Shown: positions 190 to 7,812, counted from the first letter of the stretch. The stretch is DNA of 7,812 nucleotides from a virus (IMGVR_UViG_2724679140_000010:1-7812), one strand, 5' to 3'. A program made the numbers and translations. Notes: a model not told the origin generated them from the letters alone.

Positions 190-669
190 TCATAGTCGCT
201 TTTCCGGTGCGATGGTGGAAGAAACCGGAATAATGAATTGTGAATGCAAAATGTGGTTTCTTACTGAGTAATACTGGCAGTGTTTTCTGTTTACATCCAG
301 AACATATTTAAAGATGCCTGCACGGGAAAGAGTAAAGTGGCTCCGGAAGAAGGGTATGTTTCCGGATAAATGTTTTTTTATAACCAGTTTTGTCCAGATA
401 TTATTTGACCTGTGGTTTATATAAGCAGATCTTTTTTGGGGCTGTACCGTGATCATACTTTGATTATGTGTGGTAAACCTTATATTCCCTGTTGACAGAA
501 AGTAAAAACAATGCGAGATGCCATTTTTATTAAGGTAATCAGTAACGGAAATAATATCATTATCGTGTGATGAAATAAGCAACGATATAACAGAGGTTAG
601 CCGACTATTCTCTGTGGAAACACAATCTGGTGGTGATAAATCTGAATGAGTTATGTAAAAATTGAACAT
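190..669 (-). CDS. Hypothetical 159-aa ORF in the AT-rich right-end region; doubtful as a real gene
   Basis: A 480-nt open frame is statistically unusual in ~35% GC DNA. However, the translation is Ser/His/Asn/Ile/Thr-rich with almost no Glu or Ala, there is no Shine-Dalgarno before the ATG at 669, and I recognise no family. Confidence 0.2.
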   Translation of the reverse strand: MFNFYITHSDLSPPDCVSTENSRLTSVISLLISSHDNDIISVTDYLNKNGISHCFYFLSTGNIRFTTHNQSMITVQPQKRSAYINHRSNNIWTKLVIKKHLSGNIPFFRSHFTLSRAGIFKYVLDVNRKHCQYYSVRNHILHSQFIIPVSSTIAPEKRL

Positions 670-1304: not shown

Positions 1305-1814
1305 GTGGCTACGCAGACTGAAGTTGCCAGGCATTTAAGTCTGACCGATCGCCAGCTTCGCAGATTGCAGAAATTGCCGGGTGCCCCGATATCGAATAAG
1401 CGAGGGCAACTGGATCTGGATGCCTGGCGCGATTTTTACATATCGTATCTGAGGAGAAGTAAAAACGATGTGCCTGGTGGCGATAGCGAAGACGACTATG
1501 AGGAGAAATTGCTTATTGCCAGATGGGAACTGACAGCAGAACAGGCTGTTACACAGCAGTTAAAAAATGAGGTGTCAAAAGGAAAACTTATTGACACCGG
1601 GTTCTGTATTTTTGCCCTCAGTAAGCTGGCAATGGCGTTATCCAGTACGCTTGATTCCATCCCTTTATCCATGCAGCGACAGTTTCCTGATTTAACACCG
1701 CGCCATCTTGACCATCTGAAAACCCTTATTGCGAAGGGGGCAAATCAGTGTGCGCGGGCGGGGGATAAATTACCGGATTTACTCGATGAATATATCAGAG
1801 CAACAACTGAATAA
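1305..1814 (+). CDS. nu1: Terminase small subunit (lambda Nu1-like), 169 aa, GTG start
   Basis: C-terminal half (…TGFCIFALSKLAMALSSTLDSIPLSMQRQFPDLTPRHLDHLK…LPDLLDEYI) resembles lambda gpNu1 as I recall it. The N-terminus has a helix-turn-helix-like segment (TQTEVARHLSLTDRQLRRL) but differs from lambda. GTG at 1305 has GAGG 6 nt upstream and an in-frame stop immediately upstream. It sits between cos and the large terminase gene. Confidence 0.88.
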   Translation: MATQTEVARHLSLTDRQLRRLQKLPGAPISNKRGQLDLDAWRDFYISYLRRSKNDVPGGDSEDDYEEKLLIARWELTAEQAVTQQLKNEVSKGKLIDTGFCIFALSKLAMALSSTLDSIPLSMQRQFPDLTPRHLDHLKTLIAKGANQCARAGDKLPDLLDEYIRATTE

Positions 1815-3714
1815 TATGATGAGCGCTGTCACAACAGCATTACAGCCCCTGATAAGGGCATTGCCGGTGACGCCAGTTGAATGGGCTGATCAAAATTATT
1901 ATCTGCCGAAAGAATCTTCATATGGTGAGGGAGAATGGAAAACGCTGCCATTCCAGATCGCCATCATGAACAGCATGGGGAATGATCAGATCCGCACTGT
2001 TAATCTGATTAAATCTGCCCGTGTTGGCTATACAAAGATGTTGCTGGGGGTGGTCGGATATTTTATTGAGCATAAATCCCGAAACAGTCTGCTTTTTCAG
2101 CCCACGGATTCTGCCGCTGAAGATTTTATGAAGTCTCACGTGGAGGCGACGATTCGGGACGTGCCATGCCTGAAAGACCTTTCCCCATGGCTGGGTCGTA
2201 AACATCGTGACAATACTCTCACGCTGAAACGCTTTTCATCGGGTGTGGGCTTCTGGTGCCTGGGCGGCGCTGCCGCCAAAAACTACCGTGAAAAATCCGT
2301 GGACGTGGTCTGCTATGACGAACTTTCCTCGTTCGAGCCGGATGTCGAAAAAGAGGGCTCGCCAACCCTGCTGGGGGATAAGCGTATTGAGGGCTCTGTA
2401 TGGCCAAAATCCATTCGCGGCTCGACGCCTAAAATCAAAGGCTCCTGCCAGATCGAAAAAGCCGCTAACGAGTCGGCACATTTCATGCGTTTTTATGTGC
2501 CCTGTCCGCACTGTGGGGAGGAGCAGTATCTGAAATTTGGCGATGATGCCTCGCTTTTCGGTCTTAAGTGGGAGAAGAATAAGCCAGAAAGTGTTTTCTA
2601 CCTTTGTGAGCATCATGGCTGTGTGATCCATCAGTCTGAGCTTGAACAGAATAACGGGCGGTGGATCTGTGAAAACACGGGCATGTGGACACGTGACGGC
2701 CTGACATTTTACAGCGCGGGTGATGAGGAGATGCCGCCACCGCGATCCATCACTTTCCACATCTGGACGGCCTATAGCCCGTTTACCACCTGGGTACAGA
2801 TAGTCTATGACTGGCTGGATGCGCTGAAAGATCCCAACGGCCTGAAAACCTTTGTGAACACCACGCTGGGCGAGACCTGGGAAGAGGCCGTGGGCGAAAA
2901 ACTCGATCACCAGGTTCTGATGGATAAGGTCGTGCATTACACGGCGGCGGTACCTGACCGGGTGGTTTATCTGACGGCGGGCATTGACTCGCAGCGAAAC
3001 CGTTTTGAGATGTATGTCTGGGGATGGGCACCGGGAGAGGAAGCTTTTCTGGTGGATAAAATCATCATTATGGGGCGTCCTGATGAGGAAGAGACGCTGT
3101 TACGTGTGGACGCGGTGATTAACAAAAAATACCGCCATGCGGATGGCACCGAAATGACTATTTCCCGTGTCTGCTGGGACACCGGGGGGATCGATGGCGA
3201 AATCGTTTACCAGAGGTCAAAAAAACACGGTGTTTTCCGTGTGCTACCGGTAAAAGGTGCGTCTGTCTATGGCAAGCCGGTGATCACCATGCCGAAAACC
3301 CGCAATCAGCGGGGCGTGTATCTGTGTGAAGTGGGGACGGACACCGCAAAAGAAATTCTCTATGCCCGTATGAAAGCCAGTCCCACACCTGCAGATGAAG
3401 CCACATCGTATGCCATCCGTTTTCCTGATAATCCGGAGATTTTTTCGCAGACAGAGGCGCAGCAACTGGTCGCGGAAGAGCTTGTGGAGAAGTGGGAAAA
3501 AGGAAAGATGCGCCTGCTGTGGGATAACAAAAAGCGGCGTAACGAAGCGCTGGACTGCCTGGTGTATGCCTACGCAGCATTACGTGTGTCCGTGCAACGC
3601 TGGCAGCTTGATCTGGCTGTACTGGCAAAATCCCGGGAAGAAGAGACGACCCGGCCAACCCTTGAAGAACTGGCAGCGAAGCTGTCCGGAGGAGTGAATG
3701 GTAACAGTCGCTGA
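1786..3714 (+). CDS. A: Terminase large subunit (lambda gpA-like), 642 aa
   Basis: Matches lambda gpA along its length as recalled: MNIS… start, conserved NYYLPKE segment, Walker-A-like KSARVGYT, CPHCGEEQYLKFGD, TAYSPFTTWVQIV, FVNTTLGETWE, LTAGIDSQ, KKRRNEALDC. Start placed at the ATG giving MNISEQQ (19 codons inside the longer ORF in the track). Overlaps the nu1 3' end by 29 nt. Confidence 0.95.
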   Translation: MNISEQQLNNMMSAVTTALQPLIRALPVTPVEWADQNYYLPKESSYGEGEWKTLPFQIAIMNSMGNDQIRTVNLIKSARVGYTKMLLGVVGYFIEHKSRNSLLFQPTDSAAEDFMKSHVEATIRDVPCLKDLSPWLGRKHRDNTLTLKRFSSGVGFWCLGGAAAKNYREKSVDVVCYDELSSFEPDVEKEGSPTLLGDKRIEGSVWPKSIRGSTPKIKGSCQIEKAANESAHFMRFYVPCPHCGEEQYLKFGDDASLFGLKWEKNKPESVFYLCEHHGCVIHQSELEQNNGRWICENTGMWTRDGLTFYSAGDEEMPPPRSITFHIWTAYSPFTTWVQIVYDWLDALKDPNGLKTFVNTTLGETWEEAVGEKLDHQVLMDKVVHYTAAVPDRVVYLTAGIDSQRNRFEMYVWGWAPGEEAFLVDKIIIMGRPDEEETLLRVDAVINKKYRHADGTEMTISRVCWDTGGIDGEIVYQRSKKHGVFRVLPVKGASVYGKPVITMPKTRNQRGVYLCEVGTDTAKEILYARMKASPTPADEATSYAIRFPDNPEIFSQTEAQQLVAEELVEKWEKGKMRLLWDNKKRRNEALDCLVYAYAALRVSVQRWQLDLAVLAKSREEETTRPTLEELAAKLSGGVNGNSR

Positions 3715-3901
3715 ACTGCAGGCGCTGCGTCAGGCGCGTCTTGATTTATTAACCGGTAAACGGGTGGTGTCGGTCCAGAAAGATGGTCGCAGAATTGAAT
3801 ATACGGCAGCCTCTCTGGATGAGCTTAATCGTGCTATCAATGATGCGGAGTCGGTACTGGGGACAACCCGCCGCCGTCGCCCGCTGGGAGTGAGGTTATG
3901 A
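3698..3901 (+). CDS. W: Head-tail joining / head completion protein (lambda gpW-like), 67 aa
   Basis: The sequence …LTGKRVVSVQKDGRRIEYTAASLDELNRAI…TRRRRP resembles lambda gpW (68 aa) as recalled. GGAGG lies upstream of the ATG. Stop overlaps the B start as ATGA. Confidence 0.88.
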   Translation: MVTVAELQALRQARLDLLTGKRVVSVQKDGRRIEYTAASLDELNRAINDAESVLGTTRRRRPLGVRL

Positions 3902-5490
3902 AACGAACGCCAGTCCTGATTGATGTGAACGGCGTTCCGCTTCGTGAGAGTCTCAGCTACAACGGGGGCGGCGCAGGATTTGGCGGGCAAATGGCCGAGT
4001 GGTTACCACCGGCGCAGGGTGTTGATGCTGCCCTGCTGCCTGCGTTGCGTCTGGGGAATGCCCGTGCAGATGATCTGGTACGCAATAACGGTATAGCGGC
4101 CAATGCGGTGGCCCTGCATAAGGATCACATTGTCGGGCACATGTTTCTTATTAGTTACCGTCCGAACTGGCGCTGGCTTGGGATGCGGGAGTCCGCGGCA
4201 AAAATCTTTGTCGATGAGGTGGAGGCGGCCTGGTCGGAATACGCGGAAGGAATGTTTGGCGAGATCGATGTGGAAGGGAAACGCACCTTTACGGAATTTA
4301 TCCGTGAAGGTGTGGGCGTTCATGCATTTAACGGTGAAATCTTTGTGCAGCCGGTCTGGGATACGGAAACCACACGGTTATTCCGCACGCGTTTTAAAGC
4401 CGTGAGCCCTAAACGGGTGGACACGCCGGGACACGGTATGGGTAACCGTTTCCTGCGGGCCGGGGTGGAAGTCGATCGGTATGGACGGGCCGTTGCGTAC
4501 CATATCTGTGAGGATGATTTTCCGTTCTCTGGTCGTGGACGATGGGAACGGATCCCGCGTGAACTTCCCACCGGGCGTCCGGCCATGCTGCATATTTTCG
4601 AGCCGGTTGAGGACGGGCAGACCCGTGGGGCTAATCAGTTTTACAGCGTCATGGAACGGCTGAAAATGCTCGATTCCCTGCAGACCACGCAGCTTCAGTC
4701 GGCCATAGTGAAGGCGATGTATGCAGCGACGATTGAAAGTGAACTCGATACCGAAAAGGCCTTTGAATATATCGCGGGTGCACCGCAGAGTCAGCAGGAT
4801 AATCCGCTCATTAATATTCTGGAGAAGTTCACCCGCTGGTATGACACGAATAACGTGACGCTGGGCGGTGTCAAAATTCCGCACCTTTTCCCCGGGGATG
4901 ATTTGAAACTGCAGACTGCGCAGGATTCAGATAATGGATTTTCTGCGCTTGAACAGGCGCTGCTGCGGTATATCGCCGCCGGTCTTGGTGTTTCCTACGA
5001 ACAGTTGTCCCGTGATTACTCGAAGGTCAGTTACTCAAGTGCCCGTGCCTCAGCCAATGAGTCGTGGCGTTATTTTATGGGGCGACGAAAATTTATTGCG
5101 TCCCGGCTGGCCACGCAGATGTTTTCCTGCTGGCTGGAAGAGGCGCTTCTTCGGGGGATTATTCGTCCGCCACGGGCGCGTTTTGATTTTTATCAGGCGC
5201 GTTCAGCCTGGTCACGGGCAGAGTGGATTGGCTCCGGAAGAATGGCCATTGATGGACTCAAGGAGGTTCAGGAGTCGGTGATGCGCATTGAGGCCGGACT
5301 GAGCACGTATGAGAAAGAGCTGGCGCTGATGGGTGAGGATTATCAGGACATTTTCCGCCAGCAGGTCAGGGAATCTGCAGAGCGGGAAAAAGCCGGGCTC
5401 TCACGCCCGGTGTGGATAGCGCAGGCGTATCAGCAGCAGATAGCGGAGAGTCGCAGGCCGGAAGAGGAGACAACACCACGTGAGACGTAA
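3898..5490 (+). CDS. B: Portal protein (lambda gpB-like), 530 aa
   Basis: Size (530 aa vs lambda 533) and position immediately after W, translationally coupled via ATGA overlap, fit a lambda-type portal. The long ORF has coherent codon usage. Confidence 0.9.
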   Translation: MKRTPVLIDVNGVPLRESLSYNGGGAGFGGQMAEWLPPAQGVDAALLPALRLGNARADDLVRNNGIAANAVALHKDHIVGHMFLISYRPNWRWLGMRESAAKIFVDEVEAAWSEYAEGMFGEIDVEGKRTFTEFIREGVGVHAFNGEIFVQPVWDTETTRLFRTRFKAVSPKRVDTPGHGMGNRFLRAGVEVDRYGRAVAYHICEDDFPFSGRGRWERIPRELPTGRPAMLHIFEPVEDGQTRGANQFYSVMERLKMLDSLQTTQLQSAIVKAMYAATIESELDTEKAFEYIAGAPQSQQDNPLINILEKFTRWYDTNNVTLGGVKIPHLFPGDDLKLQTAQDSDNGFSALEQALLRYIAAGLGVSYEQLSRDYSKVSYSSARASANESWRYFMGRRKFIASRLATQMFSCWLEEALLRGIIRPPRARFDFYQARSAWSRAEWIGSGRMAIDGLKEVQESVMRIEAGLSTYEKELALMGEDYQDIFRQQVRESAEREKAGLSRPVWIAQAYQQQIAESRRPEEETTPRET

Positions 5491-6985
5491 TCTTTCACAC
5501 ATTATTGCAGCAGCATTCAATGAACCGCTGCTTCTGGAGCCCGCCTATGCGCGGGTTTTCTTTTGCGCGCTGGGGCGTGAGATGGGTGCGACAAGTCTTT
5601 CGGTACCGCAACAGCAGGTACAGCTTGATGCTCCCGGGATGCTGGCTGAAACGGACGAGTACATGGCCGGAGGAAAACGACCGGCCCGTGTTTACAGGGT
5701 GGTGAATGGTATTGCTGTACTGCCGGTGACAGGCACGCTGGTGCACCGGCTGGGGGGGATGCGGCCATTTTCCGGAATGACAGGTTATGACGGCATTGTC
5801 GCCTGTCTTCAGCAGGCAATGTCGGATACCCAGGTGCGGGGTGTACTGCTGGATATTGACAGCCCTGGTGGGCAGGCCGCCGGCGCGTTTGACTGCGCTG
5901 ACATGATTTACCGCCTCCGGCAGCAGAAGCCTGTCTGGGCGCTGTGCAATGACACGGCCTGTTCTGCCGCAATGCTGCTGGCATCGGCCTGTTCCCGACG
6001 GCTGATTACCCAGACATCACGTATCGGCTCCATTGGTGTGATGATGAGCCATGTCAGCTATGCCGGTCATCTGGCGCAGGCCGGTGTTGATATCACGCTT
6101 ATTTACGCCGGATCGCACAAGGTGGATGGCAATCAGTTTGAATCCCTGCCGTCAGAGGTTCGCCAGGACATGCAGCAGCGCATTGATGCGGCGCGCCGGA
6201 TGTTTGCTGAAAAAGTGGCGATGTATACCGGTTTATCTGTGGATACGGTTATGGGGACAGAGGCCGCTGTTTTTGAAGGGCAGTCAGGTATTGAGGCCGG
6301 GCTGGCGGATGAATTAATCAATGCGTCGGATGCCATCAGCGTGATGGCCGCGACGCTGAACACACATGATACAGGAGGCACTATGCCGCAATTAACTGCA
6401 ACGGAAGCCGTCGCGCAGGAGAACCAGCGAGTGATGGGGATCCTGACATGCCAGGAAGCGAAAGGACGTGAACAGCTTGCCTCGATGCTGGCAGGACAAC
6501 AGGGCATGAGCGTTGAGCAGGCCCGGGCGATTCTGGCAGCGGCGGCACCGCAGCAGCCGGAGGCATCCCCGCTGAGTGAAGCCGATCGCATTATGGCGTG
6601 TGAAGAAGCGAAAGGTCGTGAACAACTGGCTGCAACGCTGGCGGCGATGCCGGATATGACAGTGGAAAAAGCCCGCCCGATCCTGGCTGCTTCACCACGG
6701 GCGGATGCCGGACTATCACTCCGTGATCAAATCATGGCCCTGGATGAGGCGAAAGGGGCTGAGGCGCAGGCTGAAAAACTGGCGGCCTGCCCGGGGATGT
6801 CCGTGGAGAATGCCCGGGCTGTACTGGCTGCTGCATCAGGTAAAGCTGAACCAGTCTCTGCCTCCACGACATCCATGTTTGAACGTTTCATGGCGAACCA
6901 TTCACCGGCAGCGGTGCAGGGCGGCATGTCACAAACGTCAGCAGACGGTGATGCGGACGTAAAAATGCTCATGGCCATGCCATAA
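5480..6985 (+). CDS. C: Prohead protease / scaffold fusion protein (lambda gpC-like, S49-type serine peptidase domain), 501 aa, GTG start
   Basis: N-terminus NLSHIIAAAFNEPLLLEPAYARVFFCAL and the segments GMTGYDGIVACLQQA, AGAFDCADMI, KPVWALCNDTACSAAMLLASA, IGVMMSHV, ITLIYAGSHKVDGN resemble lambda gpC as recalled. GTG at 5480 is preceded by GAGGAGA and overlaps the B stop by 11 nt. Confidence 0.88.
   Translation: MRRNLSHIIAAAFNEPLLLEPAYARVFFCALGREMGATSLSVPQQQVQLDAPGMLAETDEYMAGGKRPARVYRVVNGIAVLPVTGTLVHRLGGMRPFSGMTGYDGIVACLQQAMSDTQVRGVLLDIDSPGGQAAGAFDCADMIYRLRQQKPVWALCNDTACSAAMLLASACSRRLITQTSRIGSIGVMMSHVSYAGHLAQAGVDITLIYAGSHKVDGNQFESLPSEVRQDMQQRIDAARRMFAEKVAMYTGLSVDTVMGTEAAVFEGQSGIEAGLADELINASDAISVMAATLNTHDTGGTMPQLTATEAVAQENQRVMGILTCQEAKGREQLASMLAGQQGMSVEQARAILAAAAPQQPEASPLSEADRIMACEEAKGREQLAATLAAMPDMTVEKARPILAASPRADAGLSLRDQIMALDEAKGAEAQAEKLAACPGMSVENARAVLAAASGKAEPVSASTTSMFERFMANHSPAAVQGGMSQTSADGDADVKMLMAMP
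6383..6985 (+). CDS. nu3: Candidate nested in-frame scaffolding protein (lambda Nu3-like), 200 aa, sharing frame and stop with C
   Basis: In-frame ATG at 6383 (C residue 302, MPQLTATEAV…) is preceded by a perfect AGGAGG at 6373-6378 with 4-nt spacing. In lambda, nu3 is translated in-frame from within C. The exact start is an inference. Confidence 0.5.
   Translation: MPQLTATEAVAQENQRVMGILTCQEAKGREQLASMLAGQQGMSVEQARAILAAAAPQQPEASPLSEADRIMACEEAKGREQLAATLAAMPDMTVEKARPILAASPRADAGLSLRDQIMALDEAKGAEAQAEKLAACPGMSVENARAVLAAASGKAEPVSASTTSMFERFMANHSPAAVQGGMSQTSADGDADVKMLMAMP
6437..6860 (+). repeat. Three tandem in-frame repeats (~141-150 nt, ~47-50 aa each) within the C/Nu3 coding region
   Basis: Peptide units are RVMGILTCQEAKGREQLASMLAGQQGMSVEQARAILAAAAPQ, RIMACEEAKGREQLAATLAAMPDMTVEKARPILAASPRADAG and QIMALDEAKGAEAQAEKLAACPGMSVENARAVLAAASGKAE. 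The DNA anchor GAAGCGAAAGG is at 6455 and 6605, and GAGGCGAAAGG at 6746. Units have diverged at the DNA level, so the duplication is not recent. Confidence 0.75.
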
Positions 6986-7021
6986 AGCCACTGCTGATCA
7001 TCAATATGAGGTTTTAATAAT

Positions 7022-7369
7022 ATGGTAACGAAAACCATCACTGAACAGCGTGCGGAAGTACGTATTTTTTCCGGTAATGATCCGGCTCATACAGCCACAG
7101 GTAGCAGCGGGATTTCCTCGGCGACACCGGCTCTGACGCCTCTGATGCTGGATGAGGCCACCGGGAAACTGGTGGTCTGGGACGGACAGAAAGCCGGTGG
7201 TGCGGTTGGCATACTGGTACTGCCGCTTGAAGGCACAGAGACGGTACTGACGTATTACAAGTCGGGGACTTTTGCGACGGAGGCAATTCACTGGCCTGAG
7301 AGTGTGGATGAACACAAAAAGGCCAACGCCTTTTCCGGCAGTGCCCTGAGTCATGCGGCGCTGCCGTAA
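7022..7369 (+). CDS. D: Head decoration protein (lambda gpD-like), 115 aa
   Basis: The segments NDPAHTAT, TPLMLD, KLVVWDG, AVGIL and YYKSGTF resemble lambda gpD (110 aa) as recalled. GAGG lies about 10 nt upstream of the ATG. Position between C and E matches lambda. Confidence 0.9.
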   Translation: MVTKTITEQRAEVRIFSGNDPAHTATGSSGISSATPALTPLMLDEATGKLVVWDGQKAGGAVGILVLPLEGTETVLTYYKSGTFATEAIHWPESVDEHKKANAFSGSALSHAALP

Positions 7370-7377
7370 CACATTAT

Positions 7378-7397
7378 CAGGCCACTGCGGTGGCCTG
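7378..7397 (+). terminator. GC-rich stem-loop in the D-E intergenic region (possible partial terminator or RNA-stability element)
   Basis: CAGGCCAC-tgcg-GTGGCCTG forms a perfect 8-bp stem with a 4-nt loop, 9 nt after the D stop, followed by ACTTATTTCTG (T-rich but not a clean U-tract). Confidence 0.35.
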
Positions 7398-7425
7398 ACT
7401 TATTTCTGAATGAAGGAACTGATTT

Positions 7426-7812
7426 ATGGGATTGTTTACGACCCGCCAGTTGCTCGGTTATACCGAACAAAAAGTTAAATTTCGTGCGCTGTTTCTGGAG
7501 CTGTTTTTCCGCCGTACGGTGAATTTCCAGACCGAAGAGGTGATGCTGGACAAAATTACCGGAAAAACGCCGGTGGCGGCCTATGTCTCCCCGGTTGTTG
7601 AAGGAAAAGTGCTGCGTCATCGTGGTGGTGAAACCCGCGTGTTGCGTCCGGGCTACGTCAAGCCGAAACACGAATTTAATTACCAGCAGGCGGTTGAGCG
7701 CCTTCCTGGTGAAGATCCATCTCAACTGAACGATCCGGCTTACCGCCGTCTGCGTATCATTACCGATAACCTCAAACAGGAAGAGCACGCGATTGTCCAG
7801 GTGGAAGAAATG
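7426..7812 (+). CDS. E: Major capsid protein (lambda gpE-like), N-terminal 129 codons; continues past the window end
   Basis: MGLFTTRQLLGYTEQKVKF…LFLELFFRR…AAYVSPVV…RPGYVKPKHE…NDPAYRRLRII…VQVEEM resembles the lambda gpE N-terminus as recalled. AGGA lies 8 nt upstream of the ATG at 7426. The frame is open to the window edge. Confidence 0.93.
   Translation, partial: MGLFTTRQLLGYTEQKVKFRALFLELFFRRTVNFQTEEVMLDKITGKTPVAAYVSPVVEGKVLRHRGGETRVLRPGYVKPKHEFNYQQAVERLPGEDPSQLNDPAYRRLRIITDNLKQEEHAIVQVEEM

Follow-up and report, generated by a model that had tools for sequence, protein, structure and literature searches.

The scaffold part of the prohead protease gene in a phage-21-like Escherichia coli prophage contains three consecutive, in-frame copies of one protein module, which is predicted to form a compact three-helix domain and which probably serves the scaffold as a prohead-targeting or scaffolding contact, present here in triplicate. 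The triplication is already known, because three "Tri boxes" in the database record of the phage 21 head genes coincide, after a constant shift in coordinates, with the three units described below. What is new is descriptive and comprises the predicted fold of the unit, its distribution, its association with exchangeable proteases, and a natural series of copy numbers.

The window (the whole stretch of DNA analyzed, 7812 bases) was identified from the order of its ORFs as the left end of a lambdoid head operon (Table 1). The order matches that annotated for both lambda and phage 21, namely Nu1, A, W, B, C/Nu3, D/shp, and E. The protease/scaffold gene was 92.7% identical in nucleotide sequence to phage 21 gene 5 over its full length and 91-93% identical to the genes of about twenty other E. 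coli phages, and an exact match to its scaffold part was found in E. coli M8 (NZ_CP019953.1). The locus belongs to a phage-21-like E. coli prophage.

Table 1. Features of the window. aa, residue of the 501-residue protease/scaffold protein.
Feature	Position	Strand	Basis and remarks
Small terminase gene	1305-1814		ORF call
Large terminase gene	ends 3714		ORF call
W-like gene	3698-3901		ORF call
Portal gene	3898-5490		ORF call
Prohead protease/scaffold gene	5480-6985	+	ORF; 501 aa, GTG start; homologue of phage 21 gene 5 and lambda C
Ribosome-binding site (GGAGG) of nested scaffold gene	6374-6378	+	Read from sequence
Nested in-frame scaffold gene (predicted)	6383-6985	+	200 aa, ATG at 6383; homologue of phage 21 gene 6 and lambda Nu3
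Unit 1 (aa 313-355)	6416-6544	+	HMM envelope, 88 bits; overlaps Tri1 box
Unit 1 helices (predicted)	aa 307-322, 331-338, 345-354		AlphaFold2
Unit 2 (aa 363-405)	6566-6694	+	HMM envelope, 90 bits; overlaps Tri box
Unit 3 (aa 410-452)	6707-6835	+	HMM envelope, 82 bits; overlaps Tri3 box
C-terminal tail (aa 453-501)	6836-6982	+	Alignment to lambda
Tri1 box	6450-6553		M81255 5542-5645, offset +908
Tri box	6590-6700		M81255 5682-5792, offset +908
Tri3 box	6731-6844		M81255 5823-5936, offset +908
D/shp-like decoration gene	7022-7369		ORF call
E-like capsid gene (start only)	from ∼7427		ORF call

Residues 146-292 of the protease/scaffold protein matched the Pfam family Peptidase_S49 (PF01343; E = 1e-34, 120 bits against a cutoff of 24.9), and the SppA structures 3rst and 4kwb matched aa 77-290 with E values of ∼1e-15. 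Downstream of this domain, the scaffold is predicted from the sequence to be translated from an in-frame internal start and to share the C terminus of the protease. The arrangement GGAGG-N4-ATG was invariant in 83 of 83 related genes examined, and phage 21 records also annotate a ribosome-binding site at the corresponding position. By collinear alignment, gene 6 of M81255 (5475-6077) maps onto the nested gene with an offset of +908. The same gene is labeled "scaffolding protein" in OL657228, and the nested scaffold matched the head-scaffolding and Nu3 families of PHROG. An initial reading of the window, made from its sequence alone (hereafter the sequence-only reading), had placed the repeats in the Nu3-like part of the gene, and the interval that it gave is exactly that of the nested gene. 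Beyond the repeats, the tail carries the motif F-E-R-F-M (L-D-R-L-M in lambda) and ends in an invariant DADVKMLMAMP.

The limits of the three units were set with an HMM built from the units themselves, and both the HMM envelopes and the alignment statistics bear out the earlier observation of three consecutive in-frame copies. The tetrapeptide EAKG recurs at aa 326, 376, and 423, so that the first two copies are 50 residues apart and the last two 47. Smith-Waterman scores between units were 90-107, compared with means of 24-26 (S.D. ∼5) for shuffled sequences, and the corresponding z values were 12.8-18.2, with the observed score reached in 0 of 2000 shuffles; the similarity is therefore significant. 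Units 1 and 2 gave z = 18.2 and unit 3 gave z = 12.8-15.5 against the other two, and 21-24 identical residues were found over 35-41 aligned positions. The consensus proposed in the sequence-only reading fits except at the start of unit 1, which reads RVM-x6-EAKG and not RVM-x3-EAKG. A gap-free alignment instead places "GIL" of unit 1 opposite "RIM" and "QIM" of units 2 and 3. Unit 3 reads EAKGAE at a site where the family form EAKGRE is nearly invariant (R18 of the unit alignment).

The repeat is a feature of the protein. Nucleotide identity between units was 50-61%, made up of 58-70% at codon positions 1 and 2 and 33-44% at third positions, the average for random in-frame segments of this gene being 29%. 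That third positions have diverged so far relative to positions 1 and 2 indicates that the duplication is old and that conservation has acted on the protein. Tandem Repeats Finder reported no tandem array, as a consequence of the low identity between units in DNA, and a search for direct repeats in the DNA likewise yielded no array, only fragments of 12-15 nucleotides.

Inspection of the phage 21 head gene operon (M81255) revealed three repeat_region features inside gene 6, each annotated as "function unknown; putative" and each overlapping one of the units after the +908 shift (Table 1).

To model the unit, aa 301-359 were submitted to AlphaFold2 together with 78 diverse single-copy homologues. 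The result, with a pLDDT of 93.2 and a pTM of 0.77, was a predicted compact domain of three helices in which the conserved EAKGRE turn lies between helices 1 and 2 and the first helix reaches upstream of the HMM boundary to about aa 307. When the whole 200-residue scaffold was modeled, the helices had pLDDT values of 70-80, the linkers fell below 50, and the pTM was 0.25, a picture of beads on a string whose relative positions are not fixed. The linkers between units are short, rich in Pro, Ala, and Gln, and predicted with low confidence.

No Pfam model covered aa 313-452, for which only S49-related matches and sub-threshold noise were returned, and 0 NCBIfam families matched the 200-residue scaffold. 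By contrast with these curated sets, each unit matched PHROG families for the head maturation protease, head scaffolding, and capsid assembly protein (Nu3), the clusters being phrog_53, 1999, 8399, 8940, 17040, and 16406. A Foldseek search of the PDB with the whole 200-residue model gave nothing meaningful, which is attributable to its lack of a fixed arrangement of units. Searching PDB sequences with a consensus unit returned only noise, and the matches in BFVD were all to further prohead proteases that carry this module. One PDB match to the unit profile, a 24-residue chain of 9hqv containing AKGREALAEK, was rejected as a chance hit, the entry being an apicomplexan mitoribosome.

The lambda proteins gpC and gpNu3 are organized in the same way, with an S49 protease and a nested in-frame scaffold gene that has a common C terminus, and both tails fit [LF]-[DE]-R-[LF]-M. 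Lambda gpC is 439 residues long, the length given in the sequence-only reading, and contains one unit only (aa 356-398), which is identical to unit 1 at 30 of 48 residues (z = 22); the three-unit arrangement is therefore not shared with lambda. The suggestion that the repeats account for the extra length of the present protein was also upheld, since the two added units and their linkers contribute ∼97 residues. The net gain over lambda gpC is only +62 residues because the linker from the protease to unit 1 is ∼39 residues shorter than in lambda. The internal starts also differ, that of Nu3 being at codon 239 within the protease domain and that of the present scaffold at codon 302 beyond it. 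The two scaffolds are of almost equal length (201 and 200 residues) though different in make-up. A rule holding scaffold length at ∼200 residues was considered and rejected, given that free-standing single-unit scaffolds are 120-150 residues long.

Lambda gpC reportedly has protease activity and degrades the scaffold as the prohead matures, and gpNu3 is said to be intrinsically disordered. The latter sits uneasily with a folded module, but the module would occupy only ∼45 of the 201 Nu3 residues, and lambda Nu3 probably contains one small folded domain.

Within its own lineage, the three-unit state is the ordinary one. Of 5426 complete E. coli genomes, 1866 carried the three-unit scaffold gene, at up to five places per genome; in 1863 of these carriers the match covered 80% or more of the gene, and 37 of 40 sampled rows were full-length matches in a single piece. 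All 80 of the 80 closest relatives in IMG/VR likewise had three units. Outside the phage 21 lineage, a single copy is the rule. A search of 1.84 billion cluster representatives with the unit profile (E ≤ 1e-3) gave matches in 1364, and among the best 150 of these one unit was found in 136, two in 9, and three in 3. The list of matches also contained a 3486-residue protein (P0101), which was discarded as an unrelated repetitive protein whose tiny matches had been summed and which had 0 matched stretches. In a set restricted to one genome per species, 51 genes had one unit, 3 had two, and 4 had three, the last group comprising E. coli, Shigella, Trabulsiella, and Providencia, all Enterobacterales. 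Overall, copy number ranged from 1 to 4.

The genomic surroundings of the module were compared at 57 loci from diverse species. A portal gene of the lambda B type lay upstream in 49 of the 57. Downstream, a Phage_cap_E capsid gene was recognized at 26 loci with a locally built iterative HMM; this model missed divergent members, and Pfam assigned all 10 of the further loci tested to Phage_cap_E, so that every capsid gene identified (36 of 36) is of the lambda E type. The fused upstream protease belonged to S49 at 44 loci and was ClpP-type (PF00574) in all seven of the non-S49 cases tested. Three other unit-bearing proteins, two of them with two units, have no protease domain. The unit always lay ∼35-66 residues from the C terminus and was followed ∼10 residues on by a conserved "aLD.aM" motif. 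The module thus travels with the lambda-type pair of portal and capsid, whichever protease is attached to it. Since the two gene types always occur together, the context is compatible both with binding to the capsid protein and with binding to the portal. Genes with one, three, and four units all adjoin a lambda-E-type major capsid gene, which encodes ∼340 residues.

All three units are under purifying selection. Among 67 distinct three-unit genes, pN/pS was 0.22, 0.25, and 0.16 for units 1, 2, and 3, respectively, and 0.11 for the protease domain. Values of 0.56-0.58 were obtained for the linker before unit 1 and for that between units 2 and 3, and the linker between units 1 and 2 gave 0.22. 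The last 13 residues of the protein showed no amino-acid change among the 67 genes (pN = 0).

In a tree of individual units, all first units clustered with those of one-unit proteins, lambda included, and second and third units formed a separate group in which the genes of E. coli, Salmonella, Trabulsiella, and Providencia were partly sorted by unit position. Unit 2 of the window fell with its positional counterparts in Salmonella, Providencia, and Trabulsiella. The topology indicates that unit 1 is ancestral and orthologous to the unit of lambda and that three copies already existed before these enterobacterial prophage lineages diverged. Units 2 and 3 derive from an old tandem duplication that prophages of E. 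coli, Shigella, Salmonella, Trabulsiella, and Providencia have in common.

Departures from three copies were also found among close relatives. Two proteins have two units (P0019 and P0022), and in P0022 the first unit finishes with residues of unit 2, a sign of recombination between units. E. coli Ecol_448, whose genome is complete, has a 482-residue variant (L142) with an in-frame deletion of 19 residues inside unit 2. A four-unit gene (L141) lies in a normal head module beside D-, E-, FI-, and FII-type genes, and its units are 68-89% identical in amino acid sequence, closer to one another than those of the window. Taken with one-unit lambda, these variants indicate that three copies are not strictly required.

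According to a published account of lambda (PMC3224144), Nu3 interacts with B, C, E, and itself, and is degraded by C before packaging. The observations above are together explained best, and in our judgment probably correctly, by a nested scaffold with three modules that mediate a prohead-targeting or scaffolding interaction, which in this lineage would be trivalent. The module would bring the scaffold and the protease into the assembling prohead through transient binding to a partner, which may be the portal, the capsid protein, or further scaffold molecules. Triplication would convert a monovalent scaffold and protease into trivalent ones, so raising avidity or allowing partners to be bridged or cross-linked. 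The scaffold would then be degraded by the protease, as in lambda, and capsid size would stay unchanged. In the scaffolds of P22 and herpesviruses, the capsid-binding element is the extreme C terminus. By analogy, the lineage-specific extreme C terminus, and not the module, may be the element that binds capsid protein in the present scaffold.

Other explanations of the triplication were weighed against this one. Extra units might simply be tolerated in a flexible scaffold tail, copy number being without consequence. Such neutral expansion would suit the viability of lambda with a single unit, the existence of variants with two units (P0019 and P0022), with a damaged unit 2 (L142), and with four units (L141), and the predicted disorder of the linkers. 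It is nevertheless unlikely, because each unit has a pN/pS of only 0.16-0.25, amino acids have been conserved while third codon positions have come near saturation, the three-unit state is common to several genera, and the scaffold gene is so uniformly retained in E. coli (at least 80% matched in 1863 of 1866 carriers; 37 of 40 sampled copies full-length). If the units were instead sites at which the prohead protease recognizes or cleaves the scaffold, more copies would speed its removal. The conserved, exposed EAKGRE turn could be such a recognition element, and lambda C is reported, in the interaction table of the account cited above (PMC3224144), to degrade its scaffold before packaging. 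The fusion of the module to unrelated S49 and ClpP-type proteases, its presence in free-standing scaffolds, and its predicted compact fold, as opposed to an extended site, make this quite improbable.

The sequence-only reading had raised the idea that unit copy number affects capsid assembly geometry. Scaffolds can set capsid size elsewhere, as with Sid of P4 and CpmB of SaPI1. The idea found no support here: genomes of three-unit phages span 42.9-54.4 kb, compared with 48.5 kb for one-unit lambda, and the adjoining Phage_cap_E gene encodes ∼340 residues whatever the copy number, so that a role in capsid geometry or size is very improbable. An effect on scaffold stoichiometry, the other suggestion made there, or on scaffold valency is possible. 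Finally, the repeat could be a DNA element, such as a set of regulatory sites or a recombination substrate, with the likeness of the proteins as a by-product. OL657228 annotates two CII-site pattern matches in gene 6, corresponding to 6388-6401 and 6622-6635 of the window, and the variant with the 19-residue deletion shows that recombination between short repeats does occur. However, the CII pattern is at chance level (2 found against 1.59 expected, with 95 of 200 shuffles reaching 2), no promoter-like site was found within 6200-7500, and the units have only 50-61% nucleotide identity, with third positions nearly randomized and a null result from Tandem Repeats Finder; a DNA-level origin is scarcely credible. 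A trivalent interaction module in the scaffold is accordingly the reading that we retain.

A broader proposal, which we put forward tentatively and hold to be somewhat less than an even prospect, is that the three-helix unit is a widespread, as yet uncurated domain specific to the system of lambda-type portal and E-type capsid, acting as a portable prohead-targeting module that is joined to S49 proteases, ClpP-type proteases, or free-standing scaffolds and whose copy number, from 1 to 4, tunes valency. In this sense, scaffold and protease seem to be targeted by way of one compact, well-conserved module that is shared by a very large group of lambda-like head modules. Natural alleles with one, two, three, and four copies, together with a damaged form that amounts to two and a half, make the effect of scaffold valency on prohead nucleation, on the loading of protease, and on scaffold stoichiometry testable. 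These results leave current views of capsid assembly as they were, and the feature that they concern occurs in about one in three complete E. coli genomes.

The nearest known system is that of phage 21, whose genes 5 and 6 agree with those of the window in length (501 and 200 residues), in internal start, and in the positions of the repeats, at 92.7% nucleotide identity, and differ from them only by point differences. The scaffolding protein of P22 has a C-terminal helix-turn-helix domain that binds coat protein. It resembles the present scaffold, by analogy only, in having a small helical module near the C terminus with conserved basic residues and in being a transient scaffold that leaves the prohead; the C-terminal domain of P22 gp8 gave no sequence match and no significant fold match to the unit. 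P22 differs in that it has one module only, lacks a fused protease, and belongs to another capsid and portal lineage. Tandem three-helix-bundle binding modules are also found in surface proteins of bacteria, among them staphylococcal protein A and the streptococcal GA/albumin-binding domains, for which the likeness is one of structural analogy only.

Beyond the phage 21 lineage, proteins with two units were found in Bradyrhizobium (genes L110 and L139) and in Buttiauxella (L096), the Bradyrhizobium pair being free-standing scaffold proteins that lack a protease domain. These two-unit proteins seem to have arisen by independent duplication of the module that is found in the phage 21 lineage. 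A shortened form of the protease/scaffold gene (L142) was present in E. coli Ecol_448, where a 19-residue in-frame deletion, flanked by short 'LAA' repeats, has removed helices 2 and 3 of unit 2. The positions of this and the other features are collected in the table.

Features in the window and in the E. coli Ecol_448 genome
Feature	Position	Strand	Description
159-aa ORF	190-669	-	DUF1398 (PF07166), E=4.5e-19
TTGYNNNNNNTTGY matches (two)	6388-6401, 6622-6635	-	"CII binding site" features annotated in OL657228
Last 13 codons, protease/scaffold gene	6947-6982		Protein end …DADVKMLMAMP
Terminator-like hairpin	7377-7398	+	9-bp stem, 6 GC pairs, then T-rich run
L142, protease/scaffold gene	NZ_CP015076.1 753152-754600		482-aa version; complete-genome prophage

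Among the 67 distinct three-unit genes, the extreme C terminus of the protease/scaffold protein showed zero amino-acid changes, and synonymous diversity across its last 13 codons was also unusually low (pS of 0.024, against 0.08-0.28 elsewhere). Because pS is so low there, either extra constraint on the gene end or recent recombination is suggested. Downstream, the terminator-like hairpin separates the decoration (D/shp-like) gene from the major capsid (E-like) gene, and four terminator-like sites were found between positions 6200 and 7500 of the window, compared with 1.2 expected from shuffled sequences. The pattern TTGYNNNNNNTTGY, which matches the CII sites annotated in the phage 21 record OL657228, occurred in the window about as often as chance predicts (2 matches, against 1.59 expected).

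At the opposite end of the window, the DUF1398 ORF lies upstream of the terminase genes within a low-GC stretch (32% GC at 401-800), and a PADLOC search with it returned no match. Since the best-matching phage records cover just ∼20-24% of positions 1-1304, this stretch seems to be variable cargo, inserted between the lysis region and cos/Nu1.

Within unit 3 (6707-6835), the phage 21 lineage carries EAKGAE in place of the family motif EAKGRE, in which the arginine is nearly invariant; this substitution may reflect functional divergence between the units. The third units of the Salmonella, Trabulsiella, and Providencia genes have retained the arginine, whereas in the phage 21 lineage it has been lost.
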